A DNA stretch of 64,000 bases from an uncultured Bacteroidales bacterium (GTDB lineage Bacteria > Bacteroidota > Bacteroidia > Bacteroidales > UBA932): NCBI GenBank assembly GCA_944322605.1, contig CALUPD010000040.1, positions 9,833 through 73,832 of the forward strand. The letters run 5' to 3'. This document shows, one piece after another, positions 695 to 21,348 of this stretch (position 1 is its first letter; each line of letters starts with the position of its first letter). The notes under the pieces were generated by a model, which worked only from the letters and a program-made list of their open reading frames with translations, made no database searches and had not been told where the DNA came from. Both the position numbers and the translations under genes were made by a program.

Positions 695-1852
695 CTATTT
701 ATCCATGCCGCCTGCCATATCGTTTTGCACAAATCCGGCCAAGGCATTTGAACGGACAGGTTTGCCATGCCGCTTGCCGTATCCGCTTTGCACCCTTGCG
801 GCTAAATCATCCAATTCTTCAAGACTGATCCTACGGCATTCGGCGCGGCCCGGCGCAAGAAGCACGACGAAGTCGATGCCGTCCGCATGCGTTTTCTTGT
901 CATGCGCAATGTAATGCTTTAGTGATGTCAACGGAACGGGGCATTCCGTATAAAGCCCCATTCCTGAAAGTTCGCTTATTACCCTTTCCGTGTCTTCCGT
1001 TTCCATGCAGCCTGATTCCATGGAAATCCTTATAGCAGCCGCCATGCCTATGGAAACAGCATCGCCATGGGCTATCCTGCCGCCTTCCGATAAGATATGT
1101 TCCTCAAGAGCATGCCCGTAAGTATGCCCGAAATTAAGTATTTTGCGCCTGCCTTTTTCCGTCGGATCGCTGCCTGCCACGGAAAGCTTGATTTTCACGG
1201 CAGCAGCCACGAATTTTCCTATTCCGACAGATCTTATGTCGTTGCCGCAAGCTGAAACTTCCGATACTATGGAGCCGTACAAATCCTTATCCTGAATGAG
1301 TGCCGTCTTGACAAGTTCCGAAAAGCCCGACCTGTAATCGACGGGAGGGAGAGTATTCAGGAATTCCGGAACGATGAACACGAGGGAAGGCTGCGTTATA
1401 GTGCCTATCATGTTTTTGTACCCGCCGAAATTTACTCCTGTCTTTCCGCCTACAGAAGCGTCCGCCTGCGCAAGGAGAGTCGTCGGGATATTCACATAGC
1501 GGATTCCTCTCATGTATACCGAAGCCGCAAAGCCTCCTGTATCCGTAACCGTACCTCCTCCGACACAGACAAGGATGTCGTTCCGGCACGCATTTTTCCC
1601 AATCAGGAACGCGATGATCTTTTCTACCGTTCCAAGGCTTTTGTTCTTTTCGCAGGCATCCATGAAAAATACCGAATCTTCCGGAATGAACGCCAGCTTA
1701 TTCTTCCAAAGCCGGTACACGGCATGATCGGCAATATAAAAAAACCTCGGCCGCGTTTTCCCGATAAGGCATGCGGCCGATGCTTCAAATTCATCGGCGG
1801 ACGAAGCCATGACTACCCGTCCATTATCATTTGTTCCTATAACCTCAGCCAT
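695..1852 (-). CDS. aroB: 3-dehydroquinate synthase
   Basis: GGGTVTDTGGFAASVYMRGIRYVNIPTTLLAQADASVGGKTGVNF and HTYGHALE motifs. I moved the start to the ATG at 1850-1852 (MAEVIGT...) because the GTG-extended 5' part of the tracked ORF is encoded by intergenic repeat DNA. Confidence 0.9.
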   Translation of the reverse strand: MAEVIGTNDNGRVVMASSADEFEASAACLIGKTRPRFFYIADHAVYRLWKNKLAFIPEDSVFFMDACEKNKSLGTVEKIIAFLIGKNACRNDILVCVGGGTVTDTGGFAASVYMRGIRYVNIPTTLLAQADASVGGKTGVNFGGYKNMIGTITQPSLVFIVPEFLNTLPPVDYRSGFSELVKTALIQDKDLYGSIVSEVSACGNDIRSVGIGKFVAAAVKIKLSVAGSDPTEKGRRKILNFGHTYGHALEEHILSEGGRIAHGDAVSIGMAAAIRISMESGCMETEDTERVISELSGMGLYTECPVPLTSLKHYIAHDKKTHADGIDFVVLLAPGRAECRRISLEELDDLAARVQSGYGKRHGKPVRSNALAGFVQNDMAGGMDK

Positions 1853-1871
1853 ATTTGAATAATAACGTTTC

Positions 1872-1972
1872 CTCTTCGCTATAGCTCGCGGCAATAACCG
1901 CTGCGCCTCGGAAATTCCAGGCGGAAGCCGTTCAGGCGTTTTTCGCTGCGCGGCAATAACCGCTGCGCCGAG
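1872..1972. repeat. partial copies of the intergenic hairpin-repeat family (GCGGCAATAACCGCTGCGCC twice, plus CGGAAGCCGTTCAGGCGTTTTTCGC)
   Basis: Direct sequence match to the 130-bp unit of the array at 2567-3024, in the same orientation. Confidence 0.8.
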
Positions 1973-2072
1973 CTTGTATCGCGCCACGAAAGCCGTCCGG
2001 ATCTGATGTTTACTCCTCTTGTATCTTTCTTCTGTCTCTACTCCCTTGCCCCATGCTTCTGCATTCTGCTTC

Positions 2073-2127
2073 CTTGCCTTGCTTTTCTTGCTTTTCTTGC
2101 CTTTCTTGCCTTTCCTGCCTTTGCTGC
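2073..2127. repeat. 9-bp tandem repeat, about 5 units (CTTGCYTTT)
   Basis: TTGC recurs with exact 9-bp spacing at 2079, 2088, 2097, 2106 and 2115. Confidence 0.75.
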
Positions 2128-2566
2128 TCCTGTTGTCAATTCGTCAAATTATCCGTCCACGGCTATAATTTTTAACCTACTGATAATTAATAATATACGA
2201 TTCGCACTCGTGGAGAAATGCCATAAAAAAATACGATCAATCCACGCCTTGCTTTATTACAGCACTGATAATTAGCAAATTAAAAACAAAGAGCGTGGAC
2301 AAGTAATTTTAACTGGCACATACGGGCGTGACAAACACAAGAATTTGCAGGTCATGTCTTGAAAATGCAAGGACGCATTGGCTTTGAATGCATGGCAAAC
2401 CATACGCCGGGGTACGACATCTGGCAAAAGCCAGCCTGCGTGTCCAAGATTTCTGCTTAATTCAGGTCCGCTGCCACCCCACACGCAATCCTGCGCCCGG
2501 CAGGACACTTCAAGCTTGCCTGGACAGGCAAGCAAATCAACAGGACTTATCCTGCTGACCACCTTC

Positions 2567-3024
2567 GGGTCATTTCCGCTGCGCGGCAAGCCCCGTGCTC
2601 TCGGCTTGCTTATTTCCGCTTCGCTGTCGCTCACGGCAATAACCGCTTCGCCTAAGGCAGGCATCAAGGCTCGGAAGCCGTTCAGGCGTTTTTCGCGGGT
2701 CATTTCTGCTGCGCGGTAAGCCCCGTTGCACTCGGCTCGCTTATTTCCGCTTCGCTGTCGCTCACGGCAATAACCGCTGCGCCTAAGGCAGGCATCAAGG
2801 CTCGGAAGCCGTTCAGGCAGTTTTGCGGGTCATTTCCGCTTCGCATGCAAGCCTCTTGTTGCTCTCGGCTTGCTTATTTCCGCTTCGCTGTCGCTCGCGG
2901 CAATAACCGCTGCTCTCGGCTTGCTTATTTCCGCTTCGCTGTCGCTCGCGGCAATAACCGCTGCGCCTCGGCAGAACCCTCAAGCGAGCTTGGGGTTCTG
3001 CTCTCGGCTTGCGGGTTATTTTTC
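2567..3024. repeat. tandem array of a 130-bp unit (2 full copies plus a truncated one), followed by 2 copies of a 51-bp sub-unit and a terminal hairpin copy
   Basis: Units at 2567-2696 and 2697-2826 are near-identical. The sub-unit CTCTCGGCTTGCTTATTTCCGCTTCGCTGTCGCTCRCGGCAATAACCGCTG recurs 4 times. Each contains the imperfect hairpin TTATTTCCGC-N13-GCGGCAATAA. The last copy has the stem CAGAACCC/GGGTTCTG and overlaps the fklB-like stop codon. Confidence 0.85.
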
Positions 3025-3630
3025 AATCCCGATCAATTCGACATCAAAAATCAATGCGCTGTAAGGAGGTATCGCAGAGCCTGCGCCATGTTCTCCGTAT
3101 GCAAGGTCATAAGGGATATAAAGCCTCCATTTCGAACCGGTTTTCATGAGCTGCAAAGCTTCGACCCAGCCTTGGATTACCTGGCTTACGCCGAATACGG
3201 CAGGTTCTCCCCTTCTGTATGAAGAGTCGAAAACCGTCCCGTCTATCAATGTGCCTTCATAATGGCATTTGACCCTGTCCTTAGGACCCGGGACCGCGCC
3301 GGTCCCTTCCTTTATCACTTCATATTGCAAGCCGCTCGGAAGCACTGTCACTGATGCTTTCTTCGCATTTTCGGCAAGGAATTTTTCTCCGGCCTCGCTG
3401 AGCTTTTTTGCCTCCTCGGCATGCATGTCCTTGAAAAATTTATCCAGGACATCATTGGCCTGGTCAACCGACATCTTCGGCTCCCTGTTTTCGATCACTG
3501 TTTTGAAAGCATCGAAAAAATCATCGGCATTGATAGATGAGACATTATTATGCCTGAGATTATTGGCAATCGACATGCCGAGCGCGTAACTTACTTTATC
3601 CATATCGTTATTGGTTTTAATATGCCGCAA
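3016..3630 (-). CDS. FKBP-type peptidyl-prolyl cis-trans isomerase
   Basis: C-terminal FKBP domain: YEGTLIDGTVFDSSYRRGEPAVFGVSQVIQGWVEALQLMKTGSKWRLYIPYDLAYGEHG. The true start may be the internal MDKVSYALG (3603). Confidence 0.85.
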   Translation of the reverse strand: MRHIKTNNDMDKVSYALGMSIANNLRHNNVSSINADDFFDAFKTVIENREPKMSVDQANDVLDKFFKDMHAEEAKKLSEAGEKFLAENAKKASVTVLPSGLQYEVIKEGTGAVPGPKDRVKCHYEGTLIDGTVFDSSYRRGEPAVFGVSQVIQGWVEALQLMKTGSKWRLYIPYDLAYGEHGAGSAIPPYSALIFDVELIGIEK

Positions 3631-3711
3631 AGGGCTGAACGTACTATATTAATAAATGCTGCAAGCACCTTGCAATCATCGCTTTGAATGCATGCAGGCT
3701 GAACATGCCAT

Positions 3712-3759
3712 ATTAATAAATGCCTCCCGCTATGCGCAAACCGGCAGACGGGAGGCATT
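3712..3759 (-). terminator. rho-independent terminator after the dsbD-like gene
   Basis: 11-bp stem AATGCCTCCCG/CGGGAGGCATT (3719-3729 / 3749-3759), followed on the minus strand by TTTATTAATA. Confidence 0.6.
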
Positions 3760-3779
3760 TGCCATTATTCCTTTAATCG

Positions 3780-5807
3780 TTATTTGTTGTAGTTTTCAAG
3801 TCCTGTCTTGAGGAATTCCACGAATTCCGCCACATCCAAATTATATCCTCTTCCAGGAGCAAGGTATTCGCCTGTTTCCGCGTCAAGCAGTATATAATAA
3901 GGCTGGGCATTCACGTTATAGTTCTTTTCGGAAATATACGAGTTGATTTTGCCCAATGTCTTCAAGACCCTGCCATTATCAGTCGTTATCCAGTCTTCTT
4001 TATCGACAGTCATTTTATCATCTGCATAAAGGGCCAGAACGACATAATCCTCTTTAAGCATTTTAAGCACTTGCGGGTCGGACCATACCCTTGATTCCAT
4101 TTCCCTGCAATTCGTGCATGCATGGCCGGAAAAGTCTATGAACAACGGTTTTCCTGCCTTTCTTGCAGCTTCGAGGCCCTCTTCATAATCGAAATAGCCC
4201 GGAATTCCGAGAGGCATTTTCAATTTGTCCCCGTATTTTACCTGAACCGTGTTTTCAGGCACGGCCGCAGACGCCGTTCCTCCAGACGTAAGCACGAAAT
4301 CCTGGGTTGTCATAGGAGGAAGATAGCCTGACAATGCTTTCAAAGGAGCTCCGAACATGCCCGGAATCATGTAAACCACGAACGAGAACACTATTATCGC
4401 AAGGGTAAGCCTTGTTACCGAAACATGTTCAACAGGAGAATCGTTCGCGAACTTGATTTTGCCGAGAAGGTAAAGTCCCAAAAGCGAGAATACTACAATC
4501 CAAATAGCAAGGTATACTTCCCTGTCGAGCAAGCCCCAATGGTATGTCATGTCCGCTATGTTCAGGAATTTGAATCCCAAAGCCACTTCTATGAAACCGA
4601 GGACTACCTTGACTGAATTAAGCCATCCGCCTGATTTCGGAAGGTTCTTCAAAAGCGAAGGAGCAAATGCGAATACTGTGAACGGAAGCGCAAACGCAAC
4701 CGAGAATGCAAACATCGTAATGATAGGCTCCCATATGTTTCCGCCCTGGGTAGCTTCTATGAGCACTGATCCGACGATAGGACCGGTACATGAGAACGAC
4801 ACGAGAACCAGCGTAAGGGCCATGAAGAATATACCGCCAAGACCGCCCTTATCCGATTTGGAATCCGTCTTGTTCACCCATTTGCTCGGCATCGTGATTT
4901 CGAACGCGCCGAAGAACGAAGCGGCGAATACCATGAATATTATGAAGAACAATATATTCGGAAGCCAGTGCGTTGCAAGCCAGTTGAAAATGTCCGCCGT
5001 AACGGAAGCACCGCCGGCAAAATACGTAACCAATATTATTATCGCTATAGGCAACGTGTACAACGCCACGATTGAAATGCCGAAAGCCGTAGCCATCCAC
5101 CTTCCTCTCGCCTTGGAAAATCCGTCGCTCTGGTTCTTTTTAAGGAAAAACGACACAGTCATAGGGACCATCGGGAACACGCAAGGAGTCAGCAGCATCA
5201 CGAAGCCCCACATAACGGCTTTCAGTATTATGCTCCAAAGAGACCCCGTAGGAGCAGCGACCGCATTGGCCACAGATCCCGAATCTCCTGCTGAAACAAC
5301 GCTCTCCGAAGACCCTGACACAGGGGCTACCGCAGCGAGTTTTCCTTTACCGGCAGGCAATGCCACGGAAAGTTCCTCGTCCACCATCATGCACATGCCT
5401 TCCTTGCAAACCTGACCTTCGATTATTGCCAAAATTTCCGATTCCTTGTCAGTGGTAAGCTCTATCTTCTGTCCGAAAATGATTTCATTCTCGCAATACC
5501 CGATTTCCATTTCGAACATTTCGTCATAATCACGAAGGATTTCGGTTTTGATATACGGCTTGCCGAGCAGGTTCGCCTTGCCGTCCGTCTCGAAAGTTAT
5601 CGCAGCCGGAATAGGTCCGTCAACATACGGTCCGAAATCATACATATGCCAATGAGCCTCAAGAGCCCCCTCTAGAAGAACCTCATATGTATTTCCTTCT
5701 ATATGAGACACTTTGCTACTCCATTTGATAGGCTGTTCGACCATCTGCGCGAACGCGGTCCCGCAAACCAGCGCAAACAGCGCGAATACGAGTGCTAACT
5801 TTTTCAT
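3780..5807 (-). CDS. dsbD: thiol:disulfide interchange protein, DsbD family (N-terminal domain, multi-TM core, C-terminal thioredoxin fold)
   Basis: Signal peptide, about 8 hydrophobic helices including TPCVFPMVPM and SFSCTGPIVG, and a C-terminal thioredoxin-like FIDFSGHACTNCREME CxxC motif. Confidence 0.85.
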   Translation of the reverse strand: MKKLALVFALFALVCGTAFAQMVEQPIKWSSKVSHIEGNTYEVLLEGALEAHWHMYDFGPYVDGPIPAAITFETDGKANLLGKPYIKTEILRDYDEMFEMEIGYCENEIIFGQKIELTTDKESEILAIIEGQVCKEGMCMMVDEELSVALPAGKGKLAAVAPVSGSSESVVSAGDSGSVANAVAAPTGSLWSIILKAVMWGFVMLLTPCVFPMVPMTVSFFLKKNQSDGFSKARGRWMATAFGISIVALYTLPIAIIILVTYFAGGASVTADIFNWLATHWLPNILFFIIFMVFAASFFGAFEITMPSKWVNKTDSKSDKGGLGGIFFMALTLVLVSFSCTGPIVGSVLIEATQGGNIWEPIITMFAFSVAFALPFTVFAFAPSLLKNLPKSGGWLNSVKVVLGFIEVALGFKFLNIADMTYHWGLLDREVYLAIWIVVFSLLGLYLLGKIKFANDSPVEHVSVTRLTLAIIVFSFVVYMIPGMFGAPLKALSGYLPPMTTQDFVLTSGGTASAAVPENTVQVKYGDKLKMPLGIPGYFDYEEGLEAARKAGKPLFIDFSGHACTNCREMESRVWSDPQVLKMLKEDYVVLALYADDKMTVDKEDWITTDNGRVLKTLGKINSYISEKNYNVNAQPYYILLDAETGEYLAPGRGYNLDVAEFVEFLKTGLENYNK

Positions 5808-5892
5808 TATAAAATTTTTAAGTTATATTGTTAACAGTTTATGATTTGCAAATATACGATTATATCGCTTTCTTTCTATTACTTATGCCATT

Positions 5893-6213
5893 TTATTTCT
5901 CTTTGTCCCTGCTTCCGTCGAAAAAACAGCCGAACAATCCGCGCGCCTCTTCCCAGTTTTCACGGTTTATGCAATACTTGATTTTCGGAGCCTCTATTTC
6001 TCCTTGAATAAGCCCGGCTTTCCGCAATTCCTTCAGATGCTGCGAAGCCGTGGCCTTGCATATTGGAAGTTCCTCGTGCACGTCTCCGAAACAACAATTG
6101 CTCTGCTTCTCCAAAAATTGCAGGATCGCAATACGCGCAGGATGCCCCAACGCTTTCGCATAACGCGCAAGCTTCTCTTGTTCAACCGTATAACCCTTAC
6201 CTACCATATTCAA
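5893..6213 (-). CDS. ArsR/SmtB family transcriptional regulator
   Basis: LAKALGHPARIAILQFL ... CCFGDVHEELPICKATASQHLKELRKAGLI winged-HTH signature. Confidence 0.8.
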   Translation of the reverse strand: MNMVGKGYTVEQEKLARYAKALGHPARIAILQFLEKQSNCCFGDVHEELPICKATASQHLKELRKAGLIQGEIEAPKIKYCINRENWEEARGLFGCFFDGSRDKEK

Positions 6214-6249
6214 TACGTTTTTCTGTTCGCAAATTTACAAACATTTTGT

Positions 6250-6297
6250 AAAATACCAAACGGAATATGCAGCCGTTTGCGCCCTGCATATTCCGTT
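6250..6297 (-). terminator. strong rho-independent terminator closing the lipoprotein operon
   Basis: Perfect 14-bp stem AACGGAATATGCAG/CTGCATATTCCGTT (6259-6272 / 6284-6297), followed on the minus strand by TGGTATTTT. Confidence 0.7.
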
Positions 6298-6336
6298 CAT
6301 GAAAAATCATTACAGCTTACACAAAAAAGAAACGAA

Positions 6337-7707
6337 TCAATCTATATTTATAAACCAATGCGGGAACTGCGTTCCTAATGCGGAAGTTCTGACCTTCCTG
6401 CCCTGCATTGTTTTGCCATCGCTGCTGATACGCTCGACCCACCTGTTATCGGAAATGCTTATGCCGTGCACGCGCCTCATCCATTCGGACAAGGACTCCG
6501 TTACGCCCGTATTGAAATCGCTGACAAAACCGGATGACGACAACATCGTAGGAGTAAACCCGAATACGACCGCATCGTCCGTCACGGCAGCTCCGCCGCA
6601 ATTGGCCGCGCTTTCCATATACCTGAAAATTCCAGTTTCAGTATCGACAAGAGCCGGGTAATCGACACCGTCTTTCGTATATATTGCGGTAATATACCGC
6701 CCGCTGTTGCTTATGTTCCCATAAGAAGCATGGATATATATAATCGATTTCACAGAGCCGTCGCTGCCTGCCTCGCTGTTTTCGATCCCCACGTTATGAA
6801 GTTTTTCGTCCTTGTAATATACAAGCCCGAAAGTATTCCATTCGGAACCGAATATGACAGAACCGTCGGCAGAGCACCCCCTCAAATAGACCCCGTTCCA
6901 CAAAGGATTGCCAGCTGCATCTCTTTCAGGCATATCGAGAATGACATGTTCCCCGTTGACCCATTTGCACGGCACTGCGGCATTATAGACAGAGCCGTCC
7001 TCCACGCAACCTCCTACAATCACATTGCCGTCGGCAGACATTCCGGTAATCCATGGAGAAGAATAACCGGGCCTGCATGATACCGGAGTCCTTATGCCGT
7101 CAACATACAGTTCGTTGGTCACTCCCGACTCGCTTCCGATGATCAATACACGGCCATCGTCGCTAATTGCGAACACATGATCGTATATGCCTCCTATGGA
7201 AGGAATTTCCAATTCGATCTCCCTGACCTCCCCTGTCTCGAAATCAAGCACGAAACATTCATCGTCAAAATCATTCTCGTTTATGAGAAACGTATTGACA
7301 TATGCCAGATACTTTCCGTTTTTTGAAATGGAGCCTTTTCTTGTAGGCCAAAAATCCATGAATGTCCCCCTGAACAATGCAGGCATCTGATATACGGCGA
7401 GATCCGACTTGGCAGTCCCTGCCGAGAACAGGATTTTTCCACCAAGGCTGTTTTCCGTATTATTTTCATCGACACGTATGTAAGCCGTATCTCCGGCTTT
7501 CCGTACATGGATAAAATCCTTGCTCGGCACGGCCTCCCATTCTCCGGCATTGGTTTCCACGACTACCGCGACACTGTCATCCCCGGTATAATCGAACGTA
7601 TATTCCACTACCGAAAGGTTTATATAATCCAATCCTGCCTCTTTATTGCATGACGGCAAAACGAGCAGAAGCGCCAAAATCGTTATCGCATATGTTGTAT
7701 TTTTCAT
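6337..7707 (-). CDS. surface lipoprotein, BACON-like N-terminal domain plus SxDG-repeat (beta-propeller / HAF-like) region, function unknown
   Basis: Lipobox LLVLPSC. BACON-like pattern EWEAVPSKDFIHVRKAGDTAYIRVDENNTENSLGGKILFSAGTAKSDLAVYQ. Repeated ISDDGRVLIIGS / MSADGNVIVGG / CSADGSVIFGS / ISSDGKTMQG. Confidence 0.6.
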   Translation of the reverse strand: MKNTTYAITILALLLVLPSCNKEAGLDYINLSVVEYTFDYTGDDSVAVVVETNAGEWEAVPSKDFIHVRKAGDTAYIRVDENNTENSLGGKILFSAGTAKSDLAVYQMPALFRGTFMDFWPTRKGSISKNGKYLAYVNTFLINENDFDDECFVLDFETGEVREIELEIPSIGGIYDHVFAISDDGRVLIIGSESGVTNELYVDGIRTPVSCRPGYSSPWITGMSADGNVIVGGCVEDGSVYNAAVPCKWVNGEHVILDMPERDAAGNPLWNGVYLRGCSADGSVIFGSEWNTFGLVYYKDEKLHNVGIENSEAGSDGSVKSIIYIHASYGNISNSGRYITAIYTKDGVDYPALVDTETGIFRYMESAANCGGAAVTDDAVVFGFTPTMLSSSGFVSDFNTGVTESLSEWMRRVHGISISDNRWVERISSDGKTMQGRKVRTSALGTQFPHWFINID

Positions 7708-7817
7708 ATTGGTTTTATATTAAGTGATTTACAAATCCGACGACCGGACAAAACCCTGCATAATCAGTCATCCGGCAGCCATCTTTAAATAACCTTATGG
7801 ATTGAGCGGGCCATGGA

Positions 7818-9215
7818 TCATTCCGGCAATGTCCTGTATTCCACAAGAGTGGTTTTTCCCCAACCGCCTTCGCGAGGACCGTTTGCATTGAAAGGCACAG
7901 CCGCCGCATAATATCTGAAATCCGGAAGCCCTGAAGTCTCCGCCCATGTATAAGAACCGTTCCCGTAATGCAGATAACCGGTTGCATTATTCTCCGAATA
8001 ATTCGAAAGGAATGTTTCAGCAAGGAAATACTCTGACATTTCAGGATCTCTTTCTTTCAGATCATCGTACCAGTCGGCCTCGACAGTCTCATAAAAATAC
8101 CCCAAAGCGGTTTGGTCCGCAGCAATGCCGTAAACCGCGCCTCCGGAGGTTATTCCGGATATTTCAATATTTACAGGATTCGGGATTTCCAGGCCCTCAT
8201 CGAAAGAAGGCGTTGACAAAGGGAAATATTTGACCCCGGCTATTTCATCATTCTTATCATATATTGACACGTACAAATCCACAGGTTGATCATTAAGCAT
8301 GCGGCTTGTAACCATTGTCATAGAGACAGGAGTTCCGCCGTAAGACTCTAACGTATGGAAATTCGTAGTAGACCACGAATCAAGCATCAGCACAAAATCA
8401 TTATAAAAACCGGTAGGACATATCAGCTGGACCGTACCGGACTCCGAAACAGACAGAATGACCCTTCCGCACAGATCATTTGGCTCTGCCGAATAAGTTC
8501 CCTGATAAACATCTATTTCCGAAGATATGGAAACATTCGGACATTCCTCGGGAGAAAAAGTTCTTATAGGAATTTCCCATAGTCTCGTTTCAGAGCCCCT
8601 GCGATCTTCAGCCACGGCAAAAAACACGTATTCCGTTTCAGGGTCGAGATCGAAATAATTGACGCACTCGTATTCCAAAACCTCCGTGCAATAGTTCCCT
8701 TCTATCTCGCCCGAAAGGAAAGAATCGCGGTCAGATGCCTTTCCCAAATAATAACGGCATTGGTAGATTTCCTCGGTCATGGACAGCCTGAAGCCTGCTG
8801 AAACGTCCAAGACGTATTGAAGCTCCGCCTTGAACCTCGAATCAGCAGTAGAGACTTTCAAAACGCTTATCCCGCCGCTGTTTCCTTTGCGGTCATAAGA
8901 CCTTGCATAGACGGAATATATAGATACCGGATCAAGGTCGGTAAAAATCGCTTCGAGTTCCGAATTTCCATCAACGGAAAGGATACCGGACATGGTTCCG
9001 GATGAAAAAGCCTCAATGTCTTCCGGAAAGCCGATTGCATATTCAAACCTCGCCGTAGCTTCATTTGGAGAAAACAGAACTTTTACGGCAGTGCTGTCGT
9101 CATAATCCAATGCGGAAATCCCGACTTTCGCCTCAACCTGCCCCTCTTCGATTTTCTCACAACCGAACACGGCCAATGCCGACATGCATATGCATGAAAA
9201 TATGATTTTTCTCAT
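7818..9215 (-). CDS. surface lipoprotein with Fn3-like repeats, function unknown
   Basis: Signal peptide plus lipobox ALAVFGC. Repeated beta-sandwich pattern (LDPVSIYSVYARSYDRKGN, LDPETEYVFFAVAEDRRGS). Confidence 0.55.
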   Translation of the reverse strand: MRKIIFSCICMSALAVFGCEKIEEGQVEAKVGISALDYDDSTAVKVLFSPNEATARFEYAIGFPEDIEAFSSGTMSGILSVDGNSELEAIFTDLDPVSIYSVYARSYDRKGNSGGISVLKVSTADSRFKAELQYVLDVSAGFRLSMTEEIYQCRYYLGKASDRDSFLSGEIEGNYCTEVLEYECVNYFDLDPETEYVFFAVAEDRRGSETRLWEIPIRTFSPEECPNVSISSEIDVYQGTYSAEPNDLCGRVILSVSESGTVQLICPTGFYNDFVLMLDSWSTTNFHTLESYGGTPVSMTMVTSRMLNDQPVDLYVSIYDKNDEIAGVKYFPLSTPSFDEGLEIPNPVNIEISGITSGGAVYGIAADQTALGYFYETVEADWYDDLKERDPEMSEYFLAETFLSNYSENNATGYLHYGNGSYTWAETSGLPDFRYYAAAVPFNANGPREGGWGKTTLVEYRTLPE

Positions 9216-9262
9216 GATGACTTTGTATTAAGTTAACATTTATCAAAATGATTATCCGCAAA

Positions 9263-11548
9263 TCAGTTCCATGTCTTATCTATGGACACTTCCTTCACGG
9301 CAGACAATTTTCCGTCCTCATCATAAACAACTACTATAAGCTCAGCACTGTCCATAGAGTATATCTCATTTATGACAGCATCCGAAACATATTCCGTGTA
9401 AAATCCGTTCATGCAACCGTCTATGAATTCGCCGTTGGACAAATTCTTGTTTTCGCTGCTTCTTACGCCGACATAATATTTGGAAACATGCTCGTTAGGA
9501 ACAGCCGAAACCGATGTCACATATGCCCACCCGTTGTACTCGCACGAGAGGATTTCCACGGACACATCGGCATCAGGATTTCCATCGCATGCATAAGAAT
9601 CAGTCGTCTCATATATGATCATATGCTCGCCCGTCATCCCGTCTTCTCCGACAGGCGCAAAACCGAAAACATAGTCTTTTTCAGCGACAAGGTTTTCGAT
9701 TCTGAATTCGCCGCTATTTTCTATCCTCGAATAATTATTGATTTTAAGAGAATTAAGAAAAGCCTGCTCATCGAACCACTCATCGTACACTTGGAACTTG
9801 TATAGCATCGCCGATGCATTCTTTCCTAATGAAATATCGAAAACGGCTTCATGCAGTCCCATATCCTTCAACAGAGCCGAACCTTCCGCATCGCCGATAT
9901 CTTCCAAAGACTTGGTCCTGTAATTCAGCCATGCCGCATTTCCGAGCCTTCCGTCACTGTCTTTAGGAACTACCATAAGCGTATAGTCTTTCGATGGCGA
10001 CAAATACGAAATCACCGTATCCTTTGCCCCGCCATTGCAACTTATAGGATATGTAGTCACCGTATTTGCAGCCATCTCGTCAAATCCGGCAGAACCCTCC
10101 TCGCGGAATCCTTCCAAATTATAGACATATATGAATTTTGCATCTGCCGGAATATTCATGCCGAAGCGTATTTCGGAATATGACACGCTGTGACCGGTTA
10201 TCTCTACGGAGAAGTCCTTTTCTCCTATTACCACTTCCGGAAGGACCACGGACTGCCACACGGCCGCACCTGCGTCAAGGCTTCCGTCCTTTTTCACAGG
10301 AACGCCCCCGGCAGTATACATGCCCCCTCTTTCAAGAAAATAATCCGTAGTCCATGTCCTGAACGTAAAATTCATATTTTCGGAATATTCCTGATATTGA
10401 GGGGAACTATACCCTTGCGTGATAATTTCTTCCCAATCCCAGTCTTCCGAGGACGGATACATCATGGAAGCAGGGGCAGCCACAAAATAATATTTCGAAT
10501 ACAAATCCTTGTCAATCGACACTTCGATCGCAGCATCCGTACTGGTGACATCGGAGATTTTTATCTCAAAAGGTTTCGTCACATATTCTTCGGTAATGAA
10601 ATCTTTCGACACCGGAGCTCCTGAATAGCCTTTTGAATTGATTCCGTATGCATAGACCGAATATTCGGTCAGCGGTTCGAGCTGCGTCAAAATAAATGAC
10701 ACGGAAGATCCGTCCAATGAATGGCGGCTGTAATCCTGTTCTTCTGGAGCTGGAGCATCCTTTTCCACACAGCAATATGCATATTCGACGGCATTTTCCG
10801 CCACTATGCCGACTGTCGCCTGATTATATTCCGCATCTATGGTTTCTATCGAGATCAATGGCTCGATTTCCGTCCTGAACGTGGAAAACGCCCTTTCAGA
10901 CTCCTCGCCGCCGGAATTCACAGCCAAGGCTACTACCGTATAACTGGTATTTTCCATCAAGCCTCTTGCTTCTACTTCAGTCTCTTCCGAAGCCTCGACC
11001 GCATTATCCAACTCGATTGAACGAACATCTTCCGAACTTTCCGCAACAGCATATTTCATAGATGCCGCATTAAGCGGAGCCAATATGAATTTTACCGAAG
11101 AAGATGTCGTCTCAACAATCTCTATGTCTACTTTCGCCTGCGATGAAGTCACGGCATCGATGCTCGTTTCAGGGCCTTTTTTGCCATCCGCATTCGTAGC
11201 GTACGCCGTTATAATGTATTTCGTGTTTTCCGACAGGCCGCCTTCCGTAATTTTTATCGGACTTCCATCAATTTCCACGGAAGCATAATCTTCTGCGGCA
11301 GAACCTTGCTCGTACACGGCATATGAAACCGACACCGCGTTTTCAGCCACCGCCTCGAAGCTGATGCTCGAAGACGATGTCGCTGTCACTTTAAGGCTCA
11401 CAGTAGCTTCTTTCGCAGGAGTTTCATCCTTGCATGAGACCATGGCCAGCAATAACGCCGGCATGATTGCCAAGACGGCCATGCATCTTGCCTTGATGCA
11501 AAATAATCCATTCTTAGGTTTCATGATAATAATTTTTAGGTTTGACAT
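9263..11548 (-). CDS. large surface lipoprotein with about 7-8 Fn3-like repeats, function unknown
   Basis: Lipobox LLLAMVSC. Reiterated ~90-aa modules ending in L.ENT.Y.V.A.A.N..G. The start is taken at the ATG at 11546-11548 (MSNLKIIIMKPKNG); the ATG at 11524 (MKPKNG) is equally possible. The tracked start at 11605 lies inside the invertible segment and is rejected. Confidence 0.6.
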   Translation of the reverse strand: MSNLKIIIMKPKNGLFCIKARCMAVLAIMPALLLAMVSCKDETPAKEATVSLKVTATSSSSISFEAVAENAVSVSYAVYEQGSAAEDYASVEIDGSPIKITEGGLSENTKYIITAYATNADGKKGPETSIDAVTSSQAKVDIEIVETTSSSVKFILAPLNAASMKYAVAESSEDVRSIELDNAVEASEETEVEARGLMENTSYTVVALAVNSGGEESERAFSTFRTEIEPLISIETIDAEYNQATVGIVAENAVEYAYCCVEKDAPAPEEQDYSRHSLDGSSVSFILTQLEPLTEYSVYAYGINSKGYSGAPVSKDFITEEYVTKPFEIKISDVTSTDAAIEVSIDKDLYSKYYFVAAPASMMYPSSEDWDWEEIITQGYSSPQYQEYSENMNFTFRTWTTDYFLERGGMYTAGGVPVKKDGSLDAGAAVWQSVVLPEVVIGEKDFSVEITGHSVSYSEIRFGMNIPADAKFIYVYNLEGFREEGSAGFDEMAANTVTTYPISCNGGAKDTVISYLSPSKDYTLMVVPKDSDGRLGNAAWLNYRTKSLEDIGDAEGSALLKDMGLHEAVFDISLGKNASAMLYKFQVYDEWFDEQAFLNSLKINNYSRIENSGEFRIENLVAEKDYVFGFAPVGEDGMTGEHMIIYETTDSYACDGNPDADVSVEILSCEYNGWAYVTSVSAVPNEHVSKYYVGVRSSENKNLSNGEFIDGCMNGFYTEYVSDAVINEIYSMDSAELIVVVYDEDGKLSAVKEVSIDKTWN

Positions 11549-11550
11549 AT

Positions 11551-11579
11551 GTTCCGCCTCTTTGCAGGAGGCGGAACTG
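11551..11579. repeat. left inverted repeat (IR-L) of the candidate inverton
   Basis: GTTCCGCCTCTTTGCAGGAGGCGGAACTG, the exact reverse complement of 11779-11807. It is internally dyad-symmetric around the 7-bp TTTGCAG. Confidence 0.9.
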
Positions 11580-11778
11580 CAAATCGGACTGTCGCAATTA
11601 AACAATTATATGTCAATACATTATATCATCACGATATTATACGGTCGGATTTTCGTCTTCGAACATGCCTGGGAATCGCTTGGGATGGCAAAAGACTTGC
11701 TGTCCGGTTTGCGGCGTTTATAATTTTACTTGCAATAAATTATAACCTTGCCGTTATTTTATTATATTTGCAAGGAAA
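11580..11778 (+). promoter_or_regulatory. invertible promoter segment (199 bp), currently oriented away from the lipoprotein operon (OFF)
   Basis: Non-coding, AT-rich, bounded by 29-bp perfect inverted repeats. It holds a single TAnnTTTG box on the + strand, 9 bp from IR-R. Confidence 0.65.
11763..11770 (+). promoter_or_regulatory. Bacteroidetes -7 promoter box TATATTTG inside the invertible segment
   Basis: Exact match to the TAnnTTTG consensus. The same octamer lies upstream of rsmE (32912-32919) and of the ORF at 13508 (13439-13446). Confidence 0.55.
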
Positions 11779-11807
11779 CAGTTCCGCCTCCTGCAAAGAG
11801 GCGGAAC
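11779..11807. repeat. right inverted repeat (IR-R) of the candidate inverton
   Basis: CAGTTCCGCCTCCTGCAAAGAGGCGGAAC. With 11808-11809 it reads as 12-bp arm / 7-bp CTGCAAA spacer / 12-bp arm. Confidence 0.9.
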
Positions 11808-19590: not shown

Positions 19591-21348
19591 CTACTGCACA
19601 ACATAGCGTTCCAGCTCAGACACAGGCCTGTTGTCGGAACGGCTGCATTTGATCGTCCGCCTTATTATCCGGCCGAAAACGCCGTCCGGGTCCATTGCCA
19701 TTGTCGCAATCGTGGCTGTCGTATCATACGGCATGCTTATGAACGTGTACGGCTTCTCGCTCATCCTTAGCCATGCCCTGTTGAATATTTCCGCGTCCGG
19801 CCAGGACAGCGTATCAGTGGCATCCCCCGGTATTATCTGAGTAAGGAGTTCTTTGGCCGAAGTATTGAAAATATTATCGCATGCCACGAAGCACCTGCCC
19901 CTCGCCTGCTTTTCGGACAAATCCACAAGAGAGCTTTCATAAACCTCGTCGCCGGAAAAGACAGCGACCGGAATTCGTTCATACATGGCATCGGAATAAG
20001 CCAGCTCCGGCGTGACAAAGCGGAAACTGTCATCATAGACCGGAGCGCATTTCCCTGAATACTCATCCACCGCCACCGCAAACAGCACGTACTCCGTGTT
20101 CTCCTCCAACGGATAATATTTCTTTTCCACAGTCCCTCTCGAAGCCGCTGACCTTACCCTGTCATATGCAGAACCGCCAATGGAGAAAGCACATGCCTGT
20201 GCATCCGTTCCGCACGCGGCAGAATCAAACAAGAATGAAACATCAACGCAATCTCCGGAGAGGAGATCCAAGGACGGGCAGACTGCATTTGGACCGTAAA
20301 GGACAGACGACGCCGGATCAGGCCCTCCGTCATCGGGAAATGCCTCAACGCAAGCATTTTCTTTAAAAAACCCGCCGCCAGCATCCGACAATTCCTCTTC
20401 TATCCTGGAAATGACCTCGTCCGGATCATACCCGTCAGCCTTCACCGCTTTCGTAACATAATAGGCCCGGGGGTCGGATGGGACCGTCCTGATCATCGCC
20501 GTATGGGCAGGCATGACGGCTTCCATGCCGGTGCTTGAGAAACTCACATCTTCAAGGACGGCCCTGTCGCATGTCCGGAACCGGACGGAAGAAATATCCG
20601 TCGTCACATGTCCCCGATAATATCCGAATGTCAAAAACACATATTCCTTGGAAGGTTCAAGTCCTCCGAACCCTGTTTTCAGATCCATATAATATTCCGG
20701 CATTTGAACGCCAGATCCGATGACTTCTGCAACCACCTGCCCGTAATCCTGCCCTTCTATCGATTCCGCTTCCGCAAGGACATACGAATAAGGGTCATGC
20801 TGCCTTGAAGGAAACGTGGAAACCTCGGCTGAATCCTGAAGCAAAGTTCCTAATTCCGGAACGACACGCATGTCATATTTGTCAGGAAGAGCTTCCGTGG
20901 ATATTTCGAGCCTGCTTATTTCGCCGAGAGGATTTCCCTTATCGTCCGAATAATACGCCGCGACTACGTAATCGCATGACGGATCGAGGCTTCTGAAAAA
21001 TCCGCTCAGGTTTCCAGCAAGCAATTTGGTTTTCACATAATCATTGAAATACTCCCCCGCGCTGTCGGCTTCTTCCCGTATACGGTCAATGATGAAACCG
21101 GACAATTCCCTGTCGTCCATGCCGGAAACATCTTCCGCCTTCAAAATACGGATCATATATTTCGAATAATACCTCGGGCTTTCCGTATCGACGCATGCCG
21201 AAGCGAACCCGGTCTCCGCAGGTATCAGAACGATTTGCCCGTCATCCGACGGACCAGTCCCGTTACTGCGGCAAGACTGCGTTGCTGCAACAAGCAATGC
21301 CGCCGCGACAATGACAAGCCGCTTCCCGAAGATTTTCATAAACTGCAT
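19591..21348 (-). CDS. lipoprotein with Fn3-like repeats, hypothetical
   Basis: Lipobox LVAATQSC. Modules with PSKEYVFLTFGYY and LEENTEYVLFAVAVDEYSG resemble those of the operon at 6337-11548. Confidence 0.5.
   Translation of the reverse strand: MQFMKIFGKRLVIVAAALLVAATQSCRSNGTGPSDDGQIVLIPAETGFASACVDTESPRYYSKYMIRILKAEDVSGMDDRELSGFIIDRIREEADSAGEYFNDYVKTKLLAGNLSGFFRSLDPSCDYVVAAYYSDDKGNPLGEISRLEISTEALPDKYDMRVVPELGTLLQDSAEVSTFPSRQHDPYSYVLAEAESIEGQDYGQVVAEVIGSGVQMPEYYMDLKTGFGGLEPSKEYVFLTFGYYRGHVTTDISSVRFRTCDRAVLEDVSFSSTGMEAVMPAHTAMIRTVPSDPRAYYVTKAVKADGYDPDEVISRIEEELSDAGGGFFKENACVEAFPDDGGPDPASSVLYGPNAVCPSLDLLSGDCVDVSFLFDSAACGTDAQACAFSIGGSAYDRVRSAASRGTVEKKYYPLEENTEYVLFAVAVDEYSGKCAPVYDDSFRFVTPELAYSDAMYERIPVAVFSGDEVYESSLVDLSEKQARGRCFVACDNIFNTSAKELLTQIIPGDATDTLSWPDAEIFNRAWLRMSEKPYTFISMPYDTTATIATMAMDPDGVFGRIIRRTIKCSRSDNRPVSELERYVVQ

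Follow-up and report, generated by a model that had tools for sequence, protein, structure and literature searches.

Phase-variable surface lipoproteins shape phage resistance and host interaction in Bacteroides, and have been worked out in few cultured species. Global invertases are known from Bacteroides fragilis, namely Mpi, a serine recombinase that inverts capsule promoters, and the Tsr tyrosine invertases. In Bacteroides thetaiotaomicron, eight phase-variable S-layer lipoprotein/OmpA loci of the BT1927 type are described (Taketani et al. 2015 in PMC12548429; 10.1101/521070). Each of these loci has its own tyrosine recombinase, an OmpA-like barrel and imperfect 17-nt palindromic repeats (10.1101/521070), and BT1927 is ON in ~1 in 1,000 cells in vitro (PMC12548429). 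A search of one paper library returned no paper containing both "Muribaculaceae" and "inverton". Here, we analyzed a 64,000-nt stretch of DNA (the window; positions 9,833 to 73,832 of contig CALUPD010000040.1, assembly GCA_944322605.1) from an uncultured Bacteroidales bacterium, in which three lipoprotein genes, P1, P2 and P3, form a cassette beside a pair of inverted recombination sites. On balance it seems probable, with moderate confidence on our part, that this cassette is a phase-variable operon whose three lipoproteins make up a surface coat or an adhesin, and that it belongs to a diverged repertoire of such operons.

The closest known system appears to be that of the BT1927-type S-layer/OmpA loci, which the cassette would resemble in its working. 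In both cases there are multiple outer-membrane lipoprotein operons in gut Bacteroidales, with a short invertible promoter between palindromic repeats, that are mostly OFF in the reference state and have a presumed or demonstrated effect on the cell surface that counters phage and complement. The differences lie in features of the loci, not in a comparison of the proteins. Unlike the BT1927-type loci, the present one has no tyrosine recombinase (no PF00589 match on its contig) and no OmpA-like gene, there being only three genes from switch to terminator and no OmpA or barrel match in Pfam; on these two counts, its membership in the OmpA/S-layer class was rejected. Its sites are 27-29 nt long with shared arms and locus-specific 7-nt cores, and part of the family to which it belongs is under TPR-AraC regulators. 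In the following, G000 is the window's own assembly and C40 the G000 contig that contains the whole window; other C numbers denote G000 contigs or their cassettes, L numbers denote loci taken from other assemblies, and other G numbers denote comparison genomes.

Natural inversion was observed at a sister locus, C13. There, among loci chosen for an exact copy of the C13 P1, an inversion between identical flanks is all that separates L058 and L059 from L060 and G000, and the 136 nt between the cores of one assembly group are the exact reverse complement of those in the other. The inner half-sites of C13 can be told apart (GAGGCGGAAC and TACCGCCTC) and travel with the segment while the outer half-sites stay, indicating that strands are exchanged inside the 7-nt core, which is what a tyrosine recombinase should do. 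A perfect -7 box, TAGATTTG, points toward P1 in L058 and L059 (ON) and away from it in L060 and G000 (OFF). Since both orientations occur in independent assemblies, the species has an active invertase for this class of site. C13 is therefore a natural demonstration of inversion in which arm polymorphisms map the crossover to the core, and this makes the design of the sites, with shared arms, private cores and hairpins as directional terminators, directly testable. The architecture is shared with loxP, FRT and dif, in which two inverted binding arms surround a 6-8-bp asymmetric core that sets the outcome, and the C13 crossover likewise maps between outer and inner arms; the likeness is one of site architecture only. 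L058-L060 also contain at least four tandem ~77-nt units (GGAAATACGCAAGCCG...GCCGCGAAGC) a short way upstream of the inverton, ~250-900 nt before the C13-type P1.

At C40, the two sites (IR-L and IR-R in Table 1) are 29-nt inverted repeats, 100% complementary, with 199 nt between the arms. Each is built as GTTCCGCCTC-N7-GAGGCGGAAC, and the cores read TTTGCAG and CTGCAAA. The intervening segment is predicted to hold a promoter that would face the operon in one orientation only, as judged by the Bacteroidetes -7 consensus TAnnTTTG, which is said to go back to Bayley et al. in 2000. The hairpin of the distal site (-27.6 kcal/mol, z = -6.2) is followed on the + strand by CTTTTATATT and scores as terminator-like on that strand; with this T-run, OFF-state transcripts would probably stop before running antisense into ogt. 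The ON-junction pattern had no match in JGI (Joint Genome Institute) metagenome contigs.

The cassette itself was supported as a self-contained, co-oriented operon of three lipoprotein genes. The three open reading frames (ORFs) are co-oriented, and the gaps agree exactly with the preliminary description, the P1/P2 gap being 47 nt (9216-9262) and the P2/P3 gap 110 nt (7708-7817), and a terminator scan found nothing terminator-like inside either gap. The terminator that had been placed after the third gene was recovered as well, its stem folding as 15 bp where 14 bp had been counted; this hairpin lies ~40 nt past the P3 stop codon, and none of 200 shuffled sequences folded equally well. P1 more likely starts at its second ATG (MKPKNG...), because the paralogue in L009 begins with MRPKNE.

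Table 1. Coordinates of the cassette and its putative switch in the window.
Feature	Position	Strand	Remarks
P1 lipoprotein gene	9263-11548	-	ORF, 761 aa, or 753 aa if read from 11524 (likelier ATG)
P2 lipoprotein gene	7818-9215	-	ORF, 465 aa
P3 lipoprotein gene	6337-7707	-	ORF, 456 aa
Predicted intrinsic terminator closing the operon	6258-6298	-	15-bp stem, U-rich tail, -23.7 kcal/mol, z = -5.0
Proximal site IR-L	11551-11579		ends 26 nt ahead of the likely P1 start; not followed by a T-run in gene direction
Putative invertible segment	11580-11778		199 bp, non-coding, AT-rich, predicted to carry the promoter; C13 layout seen both ways
-7 box TATATTTG	11763-11770	+	perfect TAnnTTTG match; points away from P1 = OFF
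Distal site IR-R	11779-11807		GTTCCGCCTC / 7-nt core / GAGGCGGAAC plus 2 nt

Sites of this class are not confined to C40. In four cassettes there are GTTCCGCCTC-N7-GAGGCGGAAC site pairs, each with a core of its own, and complete inverted pairs lie directly upstream of the cassettes on C40 (29 nt), on C1 (25 nt, ahead of P2-P3-P1) and on C33 (24 nt, ahead of a P2). In each of these three pairs, one core is the exact reverse complement of the other, and from locus to locus the cores are different (TTTGCAG, TTCCAAG and TTGCTAA, respectively). C13 in G000 shows one site, at the start of the contig and just ahead of P1. Upstream of the cassette on C17 (25518-30788) there is a lone degenerate site, and P3 is split into ORFs of 71 and 386 aa; the same state recurs in the independent assemblies of L009 and L010, so this looks like a decaying or locked copy. 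Over the whole of G000, the motif occurs at 5 exact places and at 8 within two mismatches. Among 241 million JGI metagenome records, it was present at 7 places, all single and apparently unrelated. No copy turned up in G001 or G006. Of three genomes from the one other family with full-length P3 relatives, two had none, and the single match in the third has two mismatches and lies within a P3-like gene, where it is probably due to chance. At C4:41732-41827 the site occurs twice in direct, non-inverted orientation, 69 nt apart, both times with the core TTGATAA and with GGTTTT after it. These two copies stand between a gene resembling that of phosphoenolpyruvate carboxykinase and a three-gene outer-membrane/lipoprotein operon, and may represent a switch of the deletion type, a terminator in tandem or a duplication.

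Inversion is only one of two regulatory modes in the cassette family. The other is a TPR-transmembrane-AraC (HTH_18) regulator beside several cassettes, seen in L005, L007, L027 and L040 and, in G000, next to cassettes on C20, C4, C1 and C37.

With regard to the enzyme, G000 encodes six PF00589 tyrosine recombinases, none of them on C40. Two of the six are of a short ARHSWA(S/T) type, which we take to resemble Bacteroides invertases, and the candidate recombinases are those at C20:73901-74806 and C4:10201-11721. The closest relative of the C20 recombinase in G001, which does not have the sites, is 47% identical. As with Mpi and Tsr in B. fragilis, a remote recombinase would act on several promoter invertons with common recognition sequences. 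Unlike the Mpi system, no PF00239 serine recombinase was found in the G000 assembly, and the targets are lipoprotein cassettes rather than polysaccharide loci.

Lipoboxes had been proposed for all three proteins, and their Cys is invariant in each of the three family alignments (Cys39 of P1, Cys19 of P2 and Cys20 of P3). The residues at and after this Cys are rich in K, D and E (CKDET, CEKIEE, CNKEAG). Likewise, all 38 paralogues in the genome have a signal peptide ending in Cys, with K/D/E-rich residues next in most of them. Such a stretch after the Cys resembles the surface-export signal of Bacteroidetes lipoproteins, and P1, P2 and P3 are probably outer-membrane lipoproteins that would be displayed on the cell surface.

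P1 is an array of Fn3 modules, as had been noted: it matched Pfam fn3 (PF00041) at 3.5e-12 (46.8 bits vs. a cut-off of 25) and, in a profile search, fibronectin fragments of the PDB at 2e-12. Residues 1-439 of P1 are homologous to the entire P2 family (hhalign 99.3%, E = 1.6e-20), and ~320 more residues of Fn3-like modules lie beyond this region; P1 is therefore a P2-like array made longer by ~320 residues. P2, which was also submitted to the PDB profile search, has a Pfam fn3 score under the cut-off. Its AlphaFold2 model, with a predicted local distance difference test score (pLDDT) of 88.7, consists of four tandem Fn3 domains with helical inserts and was matched by Foldseek to the four-domain fibronectin fragments 3t1w and 1fnf (E = 1e-15 to 4e-14), which bears out the earlier guess that the second gene is Fn3-like.

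The combination of a BACON-like domain and a possible beta-propeller suggested for the third gene also held. The AlphaFold2 model of P3 (pLDDT 89.7) has a BACON-like Ig domain at residues ~28-107 and then a propeller at ~114-455, with about seven four-stranded blades by DSSP count and repeated S-x-D-G blade motifs. P3 alone scored 14.4 bits vs. the BACON model (PF13004; cut-off 25), and several of its homologues carry PF13004 or PF19190 annotations. The P3 family profile matched the N-terminal regions of 8va4, of glycoside hydrolase family (GH) 16 (E = 4e-7), and of 3zmr, of GH5; these regions we take to be BACON domains, as the search output names the enzymes only. The N-terminal domain of P3 aligns with these probable BACON-bearing N-termini of enzymes from polysaccharide utilization loci (PULs). 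The propeller, which scores below the Pfam PD40 threshold, is alike in fold to TolB/PD40 propellers: Foldseek matched it at E = 1e-7 to 1e-8 to TolB, to S9 peptidase propellers and to a trilobed protease propeller, and oligogalacturonate lyase was also among the propeller matches. With template modeling (TM) scores of only 0.45-0.52, what is matched is a generic propeller fold rather than any functional family, and a comparison of P3 with a viral structure library returned generic propellers only. P3 is comparable in these folds to BACON-domain surface lipoproteins and to TolB/PD40 beta-propellers; it has no catalytic domain and no PUL context. The invariant positions of the P3 family are the Gly, Asp and Ser of the blade motifs, with no conserved catalytic residues evident.

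No well-characterized system claimed the three proteins in these profile and structure searches. NCBIfam gave nothing for P1, P2 or P3, and PHROGs gave one marginal match among the three. The lack of any enzyme, SusC/SusD, usher or transporter signature, noted from the sequence at the outset, was upheld by Pfam, NCBIfam and PHROGs, which likewise yielded no pilin or OmpA signature in P1-P3. A SusC/SusD PUL was rejected given the absence of such Pfam or NCBIfam matches and the flanks of arsR/dsbD and ogt/glycosylase, and a capsule locus was rejected on the features tested. Type V (FimA/Mfa) pili were rejected as well, as no pilin family occurs among the Pfam matches at E <= 1 and the models are Fn3 arrays and a propeller. 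All three proteins have folds for binding or scaffolding, none of them catalytic, so that the product is more probably a protein coat or an adhesin complex than an enzyme or transporter.

The cassette had been described as the one accessory island of the window. Its accessory status stood, whereas its description as a lone island did not: G000 (1.87 Mb, 40 contigs, 95.9% complete) contains at least 13 paralogous cassettes, of which this is one. By tblastn, the assembly contains 38 full-length paralogues (11 of P1, 13 of P2 and 14 of P3) plus fragments, totaling 62.5 kb or 3.3% of the assembly. Median pairwise identity among paralogues is 38% for P1, 35% for P2 and 32% for P3, and gene order is P1-P2-P3 or P2-P3-P1. 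Identities to the C40 copy broadly covary across the three genes, which suggests that cassettes may have been duplicated as units. Several contig breaks, at the starts of C27 and C33 and the ends of C14 and C33, fall in near-identical P1-upstream/P2 paralogue stretches (the ends at C27/C33 and C14/C33 share 103-113 25-mers), so that some recent duplicates or strain variants were collapsed or not separated in the assembly, and the true copy number may be higher.

Outside G000, full-length relatives of P3 are patchily distributed. None was found in G001, the sole other genome of the genus that was searched, in which arsR and ogt lie on different contigs and synteny around the cassette site is not kept. 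Only one of 24 other genomes of the family (G006, six copies) has full-length relatives, and G019 has the BACON region only. In an order-wide sample of 401 genomes, most Bacteroidales families had no full-length P3 relative; full-length matches occurred in only one other family, with several copies per genome, and the remaining matches cover the BACON domain alone. A hidden Markov model (HMM) search with P3 across the protein library matched 922 proteins at E <= 1e-30, multi-BACON arrays among them; of the 150 best family representatives, ~80% are full length. The P3 family is real, moderately large and unnamed: public data contain on the order of several hundred clusters of it at 50% identity, and no family model is dedicated to it. 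In the sampled loci of Rikenellaceae, Bacteroides, Dysgonomonas, Prevotellaceae and Muribaculaceae, P3 usually comes directly after P2; P2-P3 is a pair conserved across Bacteroidales, and P1 is an optional extra.

In the mechanism that we envision, P1-P2-P3 would be transcribed as one operon, and transcription would depend on the 199-bp promoter segment between the two recombination sites. Each site consists of a 7-nt asymmetric core between dyad arms of 10-12 bp; the arms are common to the switched cassettes and the core is specific to the locus. The gene of the responsible tyrosine recombinase would lie elsewhere in the genome, and the enzyme would flip the promoter by strand exchange in the core. 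In the OFF orientation, the promoter would face away from P1 and transcripts would meet the distal hairpin and its T-run. In the ON orientation, the -7 box would come to lie 8 nt ahead of the proximal site and 19 nt from its stem, and the transcript would read through this site into P1-P2-P3 and end at the terminator beyond P3. Independent switching of antigenically different cassettes, together with signal-regulated copies, may produce a varying population surface, for which phage, antibody or niche adhesion would be plausible selective agents. A bolder scheme, somewhat unlikely as a whole, would make this combinatorial antigenic variation in a reduced genome: one trans-acting tyrosine invertase would work on the shared arms, private 7-nt cores would block recombination between loci, several of the at least 13 cassettes would flip independently, each a heteromeric P1-P2-P3 coat of an undescribed family, and the site hairpins would serve as orientation-dependent terminators.

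Several observations weigh against the interpretation of the cassette as a phase-variable coat or adhesin operon. No recombinase gene adjoins it, and the interior of the C1 switch lacks a perfect TAnnTTTG box in either direction. The C40 switch was seen in the OFF state only, both in the window and in every one of the 10 other distinct contigs (10 samples) that extend to it. In L065 (sample ERZ16268040), a ~56-nt deletion near nucleotide 640 of P1 frameshifts the gene, with P2, P3 and the OFF switch intact, so this copy may be dispensable or decaying in places. It is conceivable, and in our judgment quite unlikely, that the C40 copy is not phase-variable in practice, the hairpins being only bidirectional terminators or insulators, or relics of a switch, and the cassette being permanently silent or driven by a non-invertible promoter. 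Such a state would accommodate the uniform orientation and the L065 frameshift, the site hairpins with following T-runs that resemble intrinsic terminators, the direct site copies on C4 and the single degenerate relic before the C17 cassette in G000 and L009. It fits less well with the 29-nt inverted repeats themselves, which are perfect in every C40 assembly, the asymmetric core included, and whose arms are closer to consensus than those of the C13 sites, which invert. Moreover, a perfect TAnnTTTG box lies at the segment end in the layout seen at C13, and consensus assemblies give the majority state only, as a comparison with the rarely ON BT1927 illustrates. Reading the hairpins as terminators alone is also weakened because three pairs have exactly reverse-complementary cores and C13 inverts. 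The candidate switch of the preliminary description is thus upheld insofar as its site class inverts in nature, whereas this copy was OFF in every assembly examined.

The remaining evidence against a phase-variable coat or adhesin comes from distant homologues. In L029, L030, L033, L034 and L036 (Bacteroides, Dysgonomonas and Rikenellaceae), P2- and P3-like genes belong to a co-oriented six-gene cluster at ~1750-10650 of each locus, which encodes a 300-aa lipoprotein, an S8 subtilase, a 311-aa PorV-like barrel, P2, P3 and a 395-aa lipoprotein. The subtilase (930-950 aa; 947 aa) has Fn3 and a C-terminal sorting domain of the type IX secretion system type (Por_Secre_tail), and the cluster looks like an uncharacterized protease-barrel-lipoprotein surface complex. 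The association of P2-P3 homologues with the S8 subtilase and the PorV-like barrel could point to a protease-associated role. The cassette might accordingly be a ligand-capturing accessory of an outer-membrane machine for surface proteolysis or nutrient capture, with P2-P3 binding substrate or tethering the enzyme and with diversity reflecting substrate range rather than antigenic variation. The TPR-transmembrane-AraC sensor-regulators beside several cassettes, typical of signal-responsive operons, and the occurrence of BACON domains at the N-termini of PUL glycoside hydrolases would suit such a role. We nonetheless consider it unlikely: the S8/PorV-like pairs of G000 (C1:64293-67978 and C39:32304-36056) adjoin no cassette, no G000 cassette contains an enzyme or barrel gene, the P3 family lacks evident catalytic residues, and promoter inversion together with 30-55% divergence among at least 13 copies fits variable surface display better.

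The locus exposes an uncharacterized lipoprotein triad that is amplified across the genome under two kinds of control, and the cassettes are targets for locked-ON/OFF genetics and for reading surface-state heterogeneity in gut metagenomes. The genes around the cassette agree with the arsR/dsbD and ogt/alkA neighbors named earlier: by Pfam, one flank encodes an ArsR HTH protein and DsbD, and the other encodes Ogt and an HhH-GPD glycosylase. Elsewhere in the window (19591-21348, - strand), a gene for a 585-aa lipoprotein without a Pfam match adjoins genes for an M23 peptidase and a TPR protein. By hhalign (94.7%, E = 6e-8), this lipoprotein is distantly related to Fn3 modules 1 and 2 of P2, indicating that the module type is also used outside the cassettes.

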